64,000 nucleotides of DNA from Promethearchaeota archaeon (lineage in GTDB: Archaea; Asgardarchaeota; Lokiarchaeia; Sigyniarchaeales; SOKP01): assembly GCA_019058295.1 (NCBI GenBank), contig JAHPZI010000028.1, positions 1 through 64,000 of the forward strand. The letters run 5' to 3'. The position numbers were made by a program, and so were the translations under genes. Below are positions 21,379 through 56,420 of this stretch, one piece after another. The notes under the pieces are model-generated. The model was not told the origin of the DNA and did no database searches. It saw only the letters and a program-made list of their open reading frames with translations. How positions within the stretch are numbered: position 1 is the stretch's first letter; the number at the start of each line of letters is the position of its first letter.

Positions 21379-22992
21379 TTACCAATTTGATTTATCTTTA
21401 AGTAATTTAAAGATATAACTATCGACTAATGCATCCCAGGAAGCTACTATAATATTTTCATGCGCGCCAATTGTCCCCCAAGAACTGTCTTTGTCGTATG
21501 TTTCTGCTAGAACCCTCACTTTTGACGCAGTTCCTTCTTGATTTATAATTCTAACTTTAAAATCTGATAAATCAATTTCCTTAATACTTGGATAAAAGTA
21601 GACCAAAGCTTTTTTGAGTGCATTATCAAGGGCATTAACTGGTCCATTGCCTTCCGCTGCTGTGTGGAATAATTCATTACCAACTTTTACTTTAATAGTT
21701 GCTTCAGAGATTAAATTACCTTTATACACTTCCGTAAGTACTCTAAATCCCTCCAATTCGAAAAACTTGTTTCTATAATAGTTTGGATCTTGTATGTTCA
21801 TATCCATACTTCTCATTATGATTTCGAGGGAACCTTCAGCACCTTCAAATGAAAAACCCATATTTTCTTTTTCTTTTATTACCCCAAGGATTGCGTCAAC
21901 TTTAGGATTCTTTTCCGTAAGGGGTATACTAAATTTTTTAGCCATATGCAAAATCGAACTTTTACCGGCTAATTCTGAGATTTTTATATTTCGTGAATTG
22001 CCTACTAATTCAGGATCTATATGTTCATAAGTTCTAACGTCTTTTAACATAGCTGAAATATGGACACCCCCCTTATGTGAAAAAGCATTTTTCCCTACGA
22101 ATGGTTGATCTAAGTCGCCTTGCAAATTCGCCATTTCATATACAAAGTGAGAAACTTCGGTTAAATTTGTCAAATTTTCATCACTTATACAATTTATTCC
22201 CATTTTTAATTTTAAAATAGGTATAATGGATGTTAAATCTGGATTTCCGCATCTTTCACCAAATCCGTTAATAGTTCCTTGAATTAAATTAGCCCCATTT
22301 AAGTAACTCTCTAAAGTGATTGCATTTGCTAATCCCGAATCGTTATGAGCGTGGATTCCTAATGGAAAATCCCCCAATTTATTTTTTACATCTGTGAATA
22401 TTGGCCCCAATTCATGAGGAAGTACACCTCCATTAGTATCGCATAACACAATCCAAGACGCTCCAGCATCTCTAGCGGTTTTTAATGTCTCTAATGCATA
22501 TTCTTTATTGCTCTTATATCCATCAAAAAAATGTTCTGCATCATAAATTACATCCATTCCATGTTCTTTCAAGAAATTAACTGTATCTTTTATCATTTCT
22601 AAATTTTCTTTTAGAGTTGTTTCTAAAGCTTTCTTGACATGTAATTCCCAACTTTTCCCAAAAACAGTCACATTTTCAATACCAGTCTTGAGAAAGGCTT
22701 GAATATTTTTATCGTCATCAATTTTAGTATTTTTTCTTCTTGTACTGCCGAATTGATATATTTTTGTATTATCTACTCCCATTTCACTTATTCTTTTAAG
22801 GAATTCGATGTCTTTAGGATTAGACCCCGGCCAACCAGCCTCAATCATGGGAATATGTAAATCCTGAATCAACCTTTCCAAGATTCTTAATTTATCTTCT
22901 ATTGAAAAAGCGATCCCGGTTTTTTGACACCCCTCCCGGAGTGTTGCATCATATATATATACATTTTTATCTTCCAATGCTATTTTCACCAT
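21379..22992 (-). CDS. cimA: citramalate synthase (DRE-TIM metallolyase with C-terminal regulatory domain)
   Basis: DATLREG, EAGWPGSNPKD, FGKSW, YDAEHFFDGY, HAHND, GERCGN, HKGGVH, GNGPVNALD, SWGTIG are typical of the CimA clade. Confidence 0.9.
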   Translation of the reverse strand: MVKIALEDKNVYIYDATLREGCQKTGIAFSIEDKLRILERLIQDLHIPMIEAGWPGSNPKDIEFLKRISEMGVDNTKIYQFGSTRRKNTKIDDDKNIQAFLKTGIENVTVFGKSWELHVKKALETTLKENLEMIKDTVNFLKEHGMDVIYDAEHFFDGYKSNKEYALETLKTARDAGASWIVLCDTNGGVLPHELGPIFTDVKNKLGDFPLGIHAHNDSGLANAITLESYLNGANLIQGTINGFGERCGNPDLTSIIPILKLKMGINCISDENLTNLTEVSHFVYEMANLQGDLDQPFVGKNAFSHKGGVHISAMLKDVRTYEHIDPELVGNSRNIKISELAGKSSILHMAKKFSIPLTEKNPKVDAILGVIKEKENMGFSFEGAEGSLEIIMRSMDMNIQDPNYYRNKFFELEGFRVLTEVYKGNLISEATIKVKVGNELFHTAAEGNGPVNALDNALKKALVYFYPSIKEIDLSDFKVRIINQEGTASKVRVLAETYDKDSSWGTIGAHENIIVASWDALVDSYIFKLLKDKSNW

Positions 22993-23021
22993 CTTAATGA
23001 ATTTTTTTTTAATAATCGAAA

Positions 23022-23088
23022 AAGAAATTTTAAACCAGAAAGCGTAATAAAAGAAAAGTCAAATCGCAAAAGGAGTTTAAAATTTCTT
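23022..23088 (-). terminator. 14-bp perfect inverted repeat with U-rich loop and tail in the cimA leader (candidate attenuator)
   Basis: AAGAAATTTTAAAC (23022-23035) and GTTTAAAATTTCTT (23075-23088) enclose a 39-nt pyrimidine-rich loop on the minus strand. Confidence 0.55.
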
Positions 23089-23095
23089 GATGAAA

Positions 23096-23152
23096 TTAAA
23101 TAATTCCAATAATAATAATACCTATGACTCTAATAGGAATTATTTTATTCAT
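23096..23152 (-). CDS. Ile-rich leader peptide upstream of cimA (MNKIIPIRVIGIIIIGII)
   Basis: ATG at 23152, TAA at 23096-23098; 10 of 18 codons are Ile; ends 103 nt before the cimA ATG. Confidence 0.7.
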   Translation of the reverse strand: MNKIIPIRVIGIIIIGII

Positions 23153-23280
23153 TAGTTTCAATAAATAATTGATTATTTATATTTTTTTTTAAAAATTGGA
23201 CTCATCTACTTTTAAGTATATTAATAATTTTAGATAGTATAATAGTAATGTTATAAATATTCTTTTAATGGGATAAGAAA

Positions 23281-23859
23281 ATGTCATTGAAATTTTGTCC
23301 TTTTTGCGGTGGAGAATTAGATAGAGATGAAGATTTTTGCCCATCCTGCGGTTCAGATTTAAGAGAGAGAAAATTAACGGAAAAAGAAGCCATCTCTGAG
23401 CCAGCAATTCCTTCACCTCCAGAAAAAAAAGTAGAAAAAGCAGAAATATCTGGAAAACAATTTGCTGATGCATTACCAAGATTAGGTGCGTTGGTTATAG
23501 ATTGTGTTATAATCTCTGGACTAATTAGTTTAGATTTTATTATATTATTAATGATTAGATTACATTTTATCGTTCCTCTAATTATTAGTCCTTTTATAAT
23601 ATTTTTCTATTTTTGGATAATGGAAATAATAACGGATGGTCGAACATTAGGAAAAATGGCTTTTAGTTTAAGGACTGTGAATGCCAAGACGCTTGAGCCC
23701 GCCAAACCAGGAAGTTATTTAGTTAATAATTTATTAAAAAGTACTCCCATAACATTCATTATTGATATAATAATTGGTTTTTTTGTAAATATAGGTTCTT
23801 CGAAGAAGAGATTACGAATCATGCAAAATCTCTCTAATACTTGCGTGATTCGGACTTAG
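23281..23859 (+). CDS. zinc-ribbon + RDD family membrane protein
   Basis: CPFCG...CPSCG; RLGALVID, GRTLGKMAFSLRTV. Confidence 0.85.
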   Translation: MSLKFCPFCGGELDRDEDFCPSCGSDLRERKLTEKEAISEPAIPSPPEKKVEKAEISGKQFADALPRLGALVIDCVIISGLISLDFIILLMIRLHFIVPLIISPFIIFFYFWIMEIITDGRTLGKMAFSLRTVNAKTLEPAKPGSYLVNNLLKSTPITFIIDIIIGFFVNIGSSKKRLRIMQNLSNTCVIRT

Positions 23860-55199: not shown

Positions 55200-56420
55200 G
55201 TGAATTATATGTGGGTGAATGCTTGGATGTCCATGAGAATGGACGCCAACCAACGGTGGTGGAGTTTTGGGTGGAATTTTGACGAATCAATACGCAGTCA
55301 AATGGATTTACCAGATAAAGTGATTATTAAAGACGATACTTTAAGGGAAGGTGAAGAAACACCTGGAACTTACTTTACAATAGATCAAAAGGTCGAAATT
55401 GCTAAAGCATTGGAAGAAATGGGAATCCCTGAAATTGAAGTTGGATATGCTGCAGGAATCAAGGAGCATGCAGAAACTTTTAAGGCTCTTAAACGAGAAG
55501 GTATAAAAATGAAATTATCATCTCACGCAAGATTATATGCTGAAGATATAAAGAAGGAAGTTGACGATATTTTAGCTGCTGAAACAGATCACATAAATTT
55601 TTTACTTGTCCCTGGTCCCGCTTTAAAAACTAAGAAAGCAGTTTTTGAAAGAATAACTGAAGGTATAGAATATGCGAAAGCTCAAGATGCTTATGTAGCA
55701 TTTGGCTCTGGACGAGTTATTCCGAAATTTTGGGAAAAATTCTTACATCTAGCTATGGATGCGGGAGTCGATAGGATTGTTGTATACGATGGAAATGGGT
55801 GCGCTCTGCCAGTTGCATTTAAAGATAATGTTGCTTTTACAAAAAAAATTGTTAAAGATATACCCATAGAAGTCCATACACATAACGACCTAGGTTTAGC
55901 AGTAGCTACAACACTTGCTGGAGTTGAAGGTGGTGCTCAAATTGTTGATGTAGTATTTAATGGACTAGGCGATAGAGCTGGAAATGCTTCTACTGAAGAA
56001 GTTATAATGGCGCTTGAAATTTTATATGGAATTGATTTAAATTTAAAATTGGATAAAATAATGGAAGTTTCTCAACTTATTGAGAAATATAGTAAAACAC
56101 CATTGCAATCCCATAAAGCTATTGTAGGTAAAAATTGTTTTATTCACGAATCAGATTTACATGTAGAGCAAATTTTGATAGGGAATTGGACAACTTGGGA
56201 ATTATATCAACCTCATGTGGTTGGACAAACTCGAAAACTAATCTTTGGCGCAACAACACTTCAGGATAGAGCGCTTAAGGCGAAATTAAATAAGATCGGT
56301 TTGGAACCAACTACAGAACAGCTAGATATTCTACGCAAACAAATTAAAGAGAAAATAAAGACTCAAGATTTCATTTCTGAACAAGAACTTGAAGAATTAG
56401 CCAAAAAAACACTCAAATAG
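55200..56420 (+). CDS. homocitrate/isopropylmalate synthase family (DRE-TIM) enzyme without regulatory domain
   Basis: DDTLREGEE, HTHNDLGLA, NGLGDRAGNA, KAIVG.NCF.HES..H; start uncertain. Confidence 0.82.
   Translation: MNYMWVNAWMSMRMDANQRWWSFGWNFDESIRSQMDLPDKVIIKDDTLREGEETPGTYFTIDQKVEIAKALEEMGIPEIEVGYAAGIKEHAETFKALKREGIKMKLSSHARLYAEDIKKEVDDILAAETDHINFLLVPGPALKTKKAVFERITEGIEYAKAQDAYVAFGSGRVIPKFWEKFLHLAMDAGVDRIVVYDGNGCALPVAFKDNVAFTKKIVKDIPIEVHTHNDLGLAVATTLAGVEGGAQIVDVVFNGLGDRAGNASTEEVIMALEILYGIDLNLKLDKIMEVSQLIEKYSKTPLQSHKAIVGKNCFIHESDLHVEQILIGNWTTWELYQPHVVGQTRKLIFGATTLQDRALKAKLNKIGLEPTTEQLDILRKQIKEKIKTQDFISEQELEELAKKTLK

Follow-up and report, generated by a model that had tools for sequence, protein, structure and literature searches.

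The 64,000-nucleotide stretch of Promethearchaeota DNA analyzed here (contig JAHPZI010000028.1; hereafter, the window) carries, on its minus strand, a short isoleucine-rich open reading frame (ORF) followed by an inverted repeat and by cimA, the gene for citramalate synthase. Read on that strand, the leader ORF (uORF; 23152-23096) comprises the codons ATG AAT AAA ATA ATT CCT ATT AGA GTC ATA GGT ATT ATT ATT ATT GGA ATT ATT TAA and encodes MNKIIPIRVIGIIIIGII, whose 18 codons include 10 Ile, 1 Val, and four ATT in succession, exactly as stated in a preliminary description of the site that was made from the letters alone. Seven nucleotides (nt) (TTTCATC, 23095-23089) separate the stop codon from the inverted repeat, the arms of which, AAGAAATTTTAAAC and GTTTAAAATTTCTT, match perfectly over 14 bp and enclose 39 nt containing a T4 and a T4-C-T4 tract. 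We refer to this hairpin behind the uORF as P2. In the window, TTTTT continues from its 3' arm. The gap, the perfect repeat, and the U-tracts of the window were thus as first described; the part of that layout that probably does not stand is the gene start. The cimA ORF opens with the ATG at 22992, but orthologs start the gene at a homologous position (+12/+15), which in the window is the TTG at 22977, 8 nt after GGTGA. Several relatives have GGAGG 8 nt before a TTG or ATG start. Because relatives start at the homologous position and GGTGA precedes it, TTG 22977 rather than ATG 22992 is probably the true start of cimA.

The gene product is a full-length citramalate synthase and a member of the TIGR00977 CimA family, scoring 688.2 bits (cut-off, 450) over residues 11-535, which bears out the identity first given to it. 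cimA is monocistronic, with the genes downstream on the opposite strand, and the 288-bp intergenic region upstream is a divergent promoter region. The nearest named relatives of this cimA are metagenome-assembled genomes (MAGs) of Promethearchaeota (72-75% identity), followed by bacteria (about 50-54%); since those nearest relatives are Promethearchaeota, the host, taken from the outset to be an archaeon, is an Asgard archaeon. An Rfam 15 scan of positions 22500-23700 with E values up to 10 returned noise only, the best match in the leader reaching 18 bits against a threshold of 41, and no family (T-box, riboswitches, or others) matched at its gathering score.

The uORF and the repeat are both rare in this genome, which comprises 3.2 Mb in 30 contigs with 30.7% G+C overall and 22% G+C in intergenic DNA. 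A crude intergenic set of 1,893 regions (397 kb) contained 3,157 ORFs that start with ATG and span 8-40 codons; at least 8 Ile, at a share of at least 40%, were present in just five. The cimA uORF ranks first among the five and is the sole ORF of the set with at least 10 Ile in no more than 18 codons. Three of the other four, together with the Ile-run ORF MFIIKLGNIIII, precede genes unrelated to isoleucine (unknown, JAB, and LRR). The same 397 kb contain nine perfect inverted repeats whose arms reach 14 bp or more and lie no more than 60 nt apart, the cimA hairpin included. Finding both features in one intergenic region before an Ile-specific gene is already unlikely by chance, and the conservation described below settles the matter: uORF and hairpin are not chance. 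The chance origin for which the preliminary description had suggested a frequency check is thereby excluded. A repeat or mobile element was also rejected, as the arm and stop-proximal motifs are found once only in the genome.

We inspected the region upstream of every cimA match in related genomes. cimA itself is patchily distributed: 26 of 41 close relatives have it, and across the order it occurs in 42 of 154 genomes. The window belongs to family f1 (eight genera), in which all 27 complete leaders place an Ile-rich ORF and a hairpin before cimA; 28 leaders entered the alignment, and 25 distinct uORFs were used for codon counts. The f1 leader ORF has 17-24 codons and follows the pattern M-(K/N/R)-x(0-3)-I-I-P-...-I-I-I-G-I-I-(I)-(I)-stop, as in MKKIIPINVIGIIAIIGII, MKRIIIPIGTIIIAIIIGIIII, MKLKIIPPRIVIIGIIIGIIII, MKHKIIPKESFIIIIGII, and MRLVLIPIVGITILLIIIGII. 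An Ile-rich ORF is also present in the sister family (f2), where the cimA leader is longer and of different sequence, ends in ...LIILIIIC or ...NLINILIIC, and is followed by a stem with a U-rich loop. A search of cimA upstream regions of the kind proposed earlier, made here within the order, returned an Ile-rich leader in both families. Upstream of cimA in the GC-richer members of the order (f3 and f4), we detected nothing comparable. A covariance model (R1) built from the 3' half of the leader recovered one site per genome in 28 of 135 f1 genomes, each abutting cimA, and none in genomes lacking cimA. Horizontal acquisition together with cimA was rejected, as 76 bacterial cimA relatives have no such leader. 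Two Desulfobacterota cimA loci (L102 and L103) carry an IIII(I) run in a longer upstream ORF, 170-290 nt before cimA; these ORFs contain ITIIIIMEA and NIIIIINAAG and resemble bacterial Ile leaders.

The f1 frame is open in 27 of 27 complete leaders, running on past a lost TAA in one of them (L008). The Pro codon (CCT, CCA, CCG, or CCC) and the last Gly codon always share this frame, across at least seven spacings of 24-45 nt. This fixed frame points to coding, because each independent length change would otherwise keep the frame one-third of the time; from its conservation we conclude that the uORF is translated. An antisense Asn-rich ORF (23087-23155, plus strand) was rejected, being open across the uORF in only 15 of 27 orthologs. 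Ile makes up 52% of codons across the distinct uORFs and is concentrated in the last codons, with third positions T (190), A (54), and C (17, ATC) but never G (0), so that no internal ATG occurs at Ile positions. Non-Ile positions vary freely even where cimA is 97% identical (N2K, I5V, and R8S between L001 and L002).

Ile accounts for 86% of the I+L+F+V total in the uORFs versus 32% in the proteome of the genome. In a single-contig f2 genome of 6,035,313 bp, leuA, cimA, and ilvB lie in a row, each with its own leader, and the leaders track the product: ...LQLLVLLLLL before leuA, ...LIILIIIC before cimA, and ...VILLVLIIIC before ilvB. A leader whose amino acid switches with the product of the next gene is what a codon sensor predicts and a membrane micropeptide does not. 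These codon patterns indicate that the signal is isoleucine, not hydrophobicity. They bear directly on the idea of an independent micropeptide gene, in which a hydrophobic membrane peptide of 18-23 residues, with its own promoter and its own terminator (P2 plus the U-tracts), would act with or near CimA. The peptide does have the look of a single membrane helix, with N-terminal Lys/Arg, a hydrophobic stretch, and conserved Pro and Gly; a TATA-like box lies at a fitting distance, U-rich tracts follow the ORF, and co-occurrence with cimA is strict. Given the excess of Ile over other hydrophobic residues, the free variation at positions besides Ile, Pro, and Gly, the switching leaders of the sister family, and the fact that CimA belongs to a family of soluble enzymes, we consider such a gene very improbable. 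Taken together, frame conservation, the Ile share of 52%, and the R1 sites establish a conserved, Ile-specific leader that accompanies cimA one to one.

Within the window genome, no amino-acid-rich leader precedes the three acetohydroxyacid synthase (AHAS)-like genes, the two ilvD-like genes, the three other LeuA-family genes, or the two LeuB-like genes. A regulon was rejected for this genome, in which the other genes of branched-chain amino acid (BCAA) type lack amino-acid-rich leaders and the other Ile-rich ORFs precede unrelated genes. The three further paralogs of the LeuA/homocitrate-synthase family (window 55200-56420, plus strand; C4:7390-8730; C10:114386-115717) score below curated cut-offs.

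P2 proved to be a conserved RNA structure, as had been supposed. In the 28-sequence alignment, 90.6% of cells in its 16 pairs are paired, 6 of the 16 pairs show compensatory double changes (e.g., AAAC/GUUU to AACC/GGUU, or U-A to C-G), and 0 of 500 shuffles reached any of five measures. Sliding the partner strand by 1-3 columns lowered pairing to 30-67%. In L006, L007, and L017, the 5' arm carries 5 inserted nt, for which the 3' arm has a matching CAU, giving a helix of ∼21 bp. Folded alone at 37°C, P2 of the window reaches -15.9 kcal/mol; across leaders, its energy is -14 to -20 kcal/mol. Where one strand alone has changed, the usual result is U-G in place of U-A (10 cells in the upper helix versus 5 non-pairs in its 10-bp core), a bias that fits an RNA of the cimA sense and argues against a DNA palindrome or a TATA role of the arms. 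The arms could nonetheless be read as protein-binding sites on DNA or RNA or as promoter elements (TTTAAA, TATA-like, in each arm), with the ORF a by-product of ATT/AAT-rich DNA: TTTTAAA/TTTAAAA occurs in them, the distance of 45-65 nt from the 3' arm to the cimA start would suit a TATA box, and a conserved upstream word, TAGTCCAATT, hints at a protein site. We regard this reading as barely credible, since the uORF frame is kept across indels, the arm variants TTTAGGAT, TTTGAAT, and TTTGGAA (6-8 leaders) keep RNA pairing while spoiling both the DNA symmetry and the TATA word, and Rfam gave no match. The 3' arm was likewise rejected as the TATA box of cimA itself, as G's in orthologs spoil the word and keep G-U pairing.

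Across the 28 leaders, the P2 loop measures 29-48 nt, is 77% pyrimidine (intergenic background, 50%), and contains a mean of 2.2 runs of at least four U. After the hairpin, a run of at least five U occurs in 6 of 28 leaders and one of at least four U in 9 of 28. The survey indicates that the conserved U-tracts are those inside the loop, not the terminal UUUUU noted at first. In f2 leaders the stem begins 1-9 nt after the stop codon; a ribosome standing there or on the final sense codon opens a large part or the whole of it. Common to all four leader types are regulatory codons that extend up to the stop, a hairpin that follows at once, and a U-rich loop.

A second, putative helix, absent from the first description of the site, lies inside the uORF. 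In this helix, P0, AAUAAUUCC (Ile-Ile-Pro) pairs with GGRAUUAUU (Gly-Ile-Ile), and AUGAA pairs with UUCAU just past the stop codon; ATGAA/TTCAT is found in 23 of 27 leaders, and ATTAT..TAA.TTCAT is invariant in the leader alignment. Nine consecutive positions are paired in nearly all 27 leaders, and pairing in the true register (78%) exceeds that of slid controls (35-54%). One compensatory change, AUC-CC/GGG, was detected in L014. When the window's uORF RNA is folded by itself, P0 is its minimum free energy structure (-10.3 kcal/mol), and real uORFs fold on average 4.0 kcal/mol better than synonymous recodings, with 10 of 26 in the lowest 5%. Such a helix would explain why TTCAT after the stop is invariant, why the first Ile of I-I-P is almost always AUA, and why Gly is encoded by GGU at upstream positions but invariably by GGA or GGG at the last one.

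Archaeal TATA boxes are centered about 26-27 bp before the transcription start site (TSS). A T[TA]TA[AT]A hexamer starting between -35 and -24 relative to the uORF ATG is present in 17 of 27 leaders, with a peak at -32 to -29, versus 2-7 of 27 leaders in control windows of equal width. Because the distance of this TATA-like box fits archaeal promoters, the TSS likely coincides with the uORF AUG or lies only a few nt away, which would make the uORF leaderless. From this geometry, in AT-rich DNA, we infer that a TSS downstream of 23152 is disfavored. Farther upstream than the leader promoter, the window (23194-23203, minus strand), L002-L007, and L017 share the conserved word TAGTCCAATT or GAGTCCAATT, whose distance from the uORF ATG varies (about -24 to -58). 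This word may serve a regulator or belong to the divergent promoter.

On balance, we favor the reading that the leader is a translated cis-acting sensor of Ile-tRNA supply for cimA, that is, attenuation in the broad sense, and give it a probability of roughly 70% on what comparative sequence analysis can tell. Archaea couple transcription to translation and terminate transcripts at oligo-U tracts, and their factor FttA/aCPSF1 is responsible for polarity when RNA is left untranslated. A sensor could be built on these properties as follows. Transcription would begin on the uORF AUG or only a few nt from it, yielding a leaderless message onto which a pioneer ribosome would load as the RNA emerges. 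When Ile-tRNA is ample, the ribosome would reach the UAA and leave, P0 would close over the start codon, and P2 would fold; the ribosome-free, U/C-rich leader would constitute the OFF state, in which the transcript would likely end early at the oligo-U tracts (aided or not by an FttA/aCPSF1-type factor) or be quickly degraded. When Ile-tRNA is scarce, the ribosome would stay parked over the Ile codons that end the uORF, abutting the base of P2. It would thereby keep P0 open, the transcript would be completed or used, and CimA would be made. This particular non-classical route, with its parked ribosome, P0, and oligo-U- or factor-dependent termination or decay, is put forward tentatively, at odds below even. 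Framed more generally, as leader-peptide control in Asgard archaea by a leaderless pioneer ribosome that, timed by hungry codons at the end of the uORF, gates oligo-U or FttA/aCPSF1-type termination or decay of a U/C-rich leader framed by a hairpin, without an antiterminator helix, we consider the proposal doubtful.

Several observations weigh against the sensor reading or parts of it. P0 is plausible as a real helix, its evidence coming mostly from invariant columns and one compensatory case, and the window's own uORF is not more stable than its recoded versions. Folds in which a 28-nt mask stood for a ribosome, on either the Ile run or the stop codon, retained P2 in f1, and the probability that the Shine-Dalgarno sequence is unpaired was unchanged (0.51 free, 0.54 stalled, and 0.53 at the stop). 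The pairing between UAAUUUC after the stop codon (segment 2) and GAAAUU in the 5' arm (segment 3) averages -2.1 kcal/mol versus -1.2 kcal/mol for shuffles and does not rise above them. Given this weak 2:3 pairing and the persistence of P2, the transmission of a stall is left unexplained, and the initial proposal that ribosome stalling controls hairpin formation found no support in these folds: P2 folds under both masks, and the candidate antiterminator reaches ∼-2 kcal/mol. If coupling is modeled simply, so that a ribosome falling behind exposes more naked RNA and raises termination, the opposite sign of control is predicted. The AT-rich spacer could hide a separate cimA promoter. In addition, searches at E ≤1e-20 in 10 genomes of the window's genus, among them some with a completeness of 98% and 99%, detected no ketol-acid reductoisomerase (KARI; TIGR00465), and the canonical steps onward to Ile seem to be missing in this genus.

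The same folds bear on a classical four-segment attenuator of the trp/ilv/leu kind, in which P0 would serve as 1:2, P2 as the 3:4 terminator, and a 2:3 antiterminator would form upon an Ile stall. The leader has what such a device starts from, a translated ORF rich in end-product codons upstream of a biosynthetic gene. Its topology also fits: P0 and P2 lie side by side, segment 1 is similar to segment 3 and segment 2 to segment 4 (AAUUUC occurs after the stop and in the 3' arm), and in the window U5 follows P2. The AUGGAAU inserted in L006, L007, and L017 can pair with AUUUCAU downstream of the stop codon (-3.5 kcal/mol, with 2.5-3% of shuffles as good). However, the 2:3 energies are near those of shuffles, falling to zero in two leaders, whereas P2 is worth many times more; about half of the 5' arm would stay free to nucleate P2, so that 2:3 could not hold. 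P2 also lacks the makeup of an intrinsic terminator. The hairpin is conserved, but a U-run after it is missing in 19-22 of 28 leaders, its loop is long, and a consensus scan of the leader for a bacterial-type terminator found none; archaeal RNA polymerase, moreover, is not known to need hairpins for termination. The 2:3 antiterminator was rejected on these energies, and a classical attenuator as a whole appears improbable.

A stalled ribosome might instead act after transcription, with no premature termination, by altering the stability of the mRNA (a blocked 5'-to-3' exonuclease, or no cleavable P0-P2 rod) or the translation of cimA. Formation of P0 is the sole structural difference between stalled and free folds, and P0 includes the 5'-terminal AUG of a probably leaderless RNA. 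The lack of a conserved terminator-like U-run after P2 suits this account, and 5' stabilization by stalled ribosomes exists in bacteria, for example in ermC. Speaking against it, no conserved pairing between the leader and the cimA ribosome-binding site (RBS) was detected: duplexes of the P2 loop with the RBS, and of the 5' part of the uORF (segment 1) with the loop, were no better than dinucleotide shuffles, composition alone giving about -10 kcal/mol. The constant accessibility of the Shine-Dalgarno sequence, which lies 31 nt downstream of P2, likewise does not match a translational attenuator of the ermC/cat type. An anti-Shine-Dalgarno role of the pyrimidine loop was rejected on the shuffle comparison, and Shine-Dalgarno unmasking by a stalled ribosome on the absence of a consistent accessibility change. 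We consider a purely posttranscriptional leader unlikely, and the broad-sense sensor of Ile-tRNA supply remains our preferred reading.

The features of the locus are collected in Table 1. The divergent neighbor at 23281-23859 (plus strand) encodes a zinc-ribbon and RDD-family membrane protein and has the same head-to-head placement relative to the leader in related genomes of the genus; the arrangement is syntenic. Two leaders depart from the usual end of the uORF and are possible natural tests of stop-to-hairpin spacing. In L008 (3094-3251, minus strand), CAA stands in place of the leader TAA, and the open frame crosses the hairpin and ends 5 nt short of cimA. In L126 (310-485, plus strand), the stop comes three codons later than usual, 1-3 nt ahead of the 5' arm.

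Table 1. Features of the cimA leader region in the window
Feature	Positions	Strand	Basis or remark
A-run, then TATAAA (23181-23176); putative BRE/TATA of the leader promoter	23176..23190	-	29-24 nt before the uORF ATG; promoter function putative
Leader ORF MNKIIPIRVIGIIIIGII plus TAA; probably 5' end of a leaderless transcript	23096..23152	-	Conserved frame, Ile content
P0, putative 5' strand: AUGAA plus AAAUAAUUCC (start codon to Pro codon)	23136..23152	-	Alignment pairing, folding
P0, putative 3' strand: GGAAUUAUUU (last Gly-Ile-Ile codons plus first stop base), AA, UUCAU	23090..23107	-	UUCAU pairs with AUGAA
P2 5' arm, AAGAAAUUUUAAAC	23075..23088	-	Inverted repeat, alignment
P2 loop, 39 nt, pyrimidine-rich, with U4 and U4-C-U4 tracts	23036..23074	-	Loop survey of 28 leaders
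P2 3' arm, GUUUAAAAUUUCUU	23022..23035	-	Covariation test
UUUUU overlapping the end of the 3' arm; not conserved	23019..23023	-	U-run count in 28 leaders
A-rich spacer from hairpin to cimA ribosome-binding site	22993..23018	-	Variable, A-rich in all leaders
Shine-Dalgarno-like GGTGA (22990-22986) and probable cimA start TTG (22977-22975)	22975..22990	-	Ortholog starts
cimA, citramalate synthase, long form with C-terminal regulatory domain	21379..22992	-	TIGR00977

The preliminary description took CimA to catalyze the first step of an isoleucine pathway, a premise that holds for the identity of the enzyme and is shaky for the pathway in this genus. CimA can probably feed 2-oxobutyrate. The window genome has LeuC/LeuD-like genes, a LeuB-like gene, and a class IV aminotransferase, and its three AHAS-like genes all score below cut-off. 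One ilvD-like gene (C30:174023-176752) passes the TIGR00110 cut-off, follows a gene for a TrmB-like regulator, and abuts an arabinofuranosidase-like gene; from this setting it may be a sugar-acid dehydratase rather than a BCAA enzyme. No KARI substitute was seen near the LeuCD-like/AHAS-like/IlvD-like region of contig C30. KARI was also not found in another cimA-bearing genus; it is present in f2 and f4 and, in one f2 genome, lies on the same contig as cimA. With KARI apparently lacking in the window's genus, the role of CimA and the direction of its control are uncertain. If cimA and its Ile leader are kept under selection without KARI, what are citramalate and 2-oxobutyrate used for?

Leader-peptide attenuation is a textbook bacterial mechanism that requires a ribosome close behind RNA polymerase. 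To our knowledge, it has not been shown experimentally in any archaeon, and our full-text literature searches found no description of an archaeal leader-peptide attenuator. If the sensor reading is true, Asgard archaea use coupled transcription-translation for metabolic control, and this sensing principle can be wired without a classical antiterminator. Should the non-classical route itself hold, the leader would be direct genomic evidence of coupling-based regulation in the closest prokaryotic relatives of eukaryotes, and in the window's genus it would act on a CimA that apparently lacks the canonical downstream KARI. The leader would also provide a compact cis element of ∼160 nt for studying archaeal termination, leaderless initiation, and coupling.

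Of known systems, the nearest to the Asgard leader are the actinobacterial ilvB uORF attenuators, discussed below, and the enterobacterial leader-peptide attenuators for branched-chain amino acids and threonine (ilvL, ivbL, leuL, and thrL). The Asgard leader shares with the enterobacterial ones a translated ORF of end-product codons before the first biosynthetic gene, a hairpin behind it, and, as proposed here, the logic of coupled transcription and translation. Unlike them, it has an archaeal promoter, a probably leaderless uORF, and no credible antiterminator; its hairpin is AU-rich with a U/C-rich loop of 29-48 nt and no conserved U-run after it, and its regulatory codons reach the stop codon. 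In E. coli tnaC, as we propose for the Asgard leader, a ribosome at the end of the leader sits beside an unstructured pyrimidine tract, a possible factor-loading site, with no antiterminator. tnaC senses free tryptophan through its nascent peptide and uses Rho, whereas the Asgard leader would use hungry Ile codons and an FttA/aCPSF1-type factor. As in ermC and cat, two stacked hairpins accompany the leader ORF; in those systems the stalled ribosome remodels them, and the second ermC hairpin hides the Shine-Dalgarno sequence and start of the gene, whereas the cimA Shine-Dalgarno sequence lies at least 31 nt past P2 and its accessibility is constant.

Among bacterial BCAA leaders, the uORF attenuator of Mycobacterium tuberculosis ilvB1NC has been verified by 5'- and 3'-end sequencing and codon mutation (PMC13236596), and that of Corynebacterium glutamicum ilvBNC is a three-hairpin attenuator (PMC11857589). 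These actinobacterial leaders have an exclusive antiterminator and a Rho-independent terminator with a U-tract, neither of which is demonstrable in the Asgard leader. They resemble it in their uORF of BCAA codons, in a very short or absent 5' leader, and in that a ribosome footprint at the regulatory or stop codons decides the fate of the leader, as would be the case for cimA under our proposal. By analogy with these systems, the Asgard leader looks like a codon-sensing principle known from bacteria in a wiring that differs from the textbook design.

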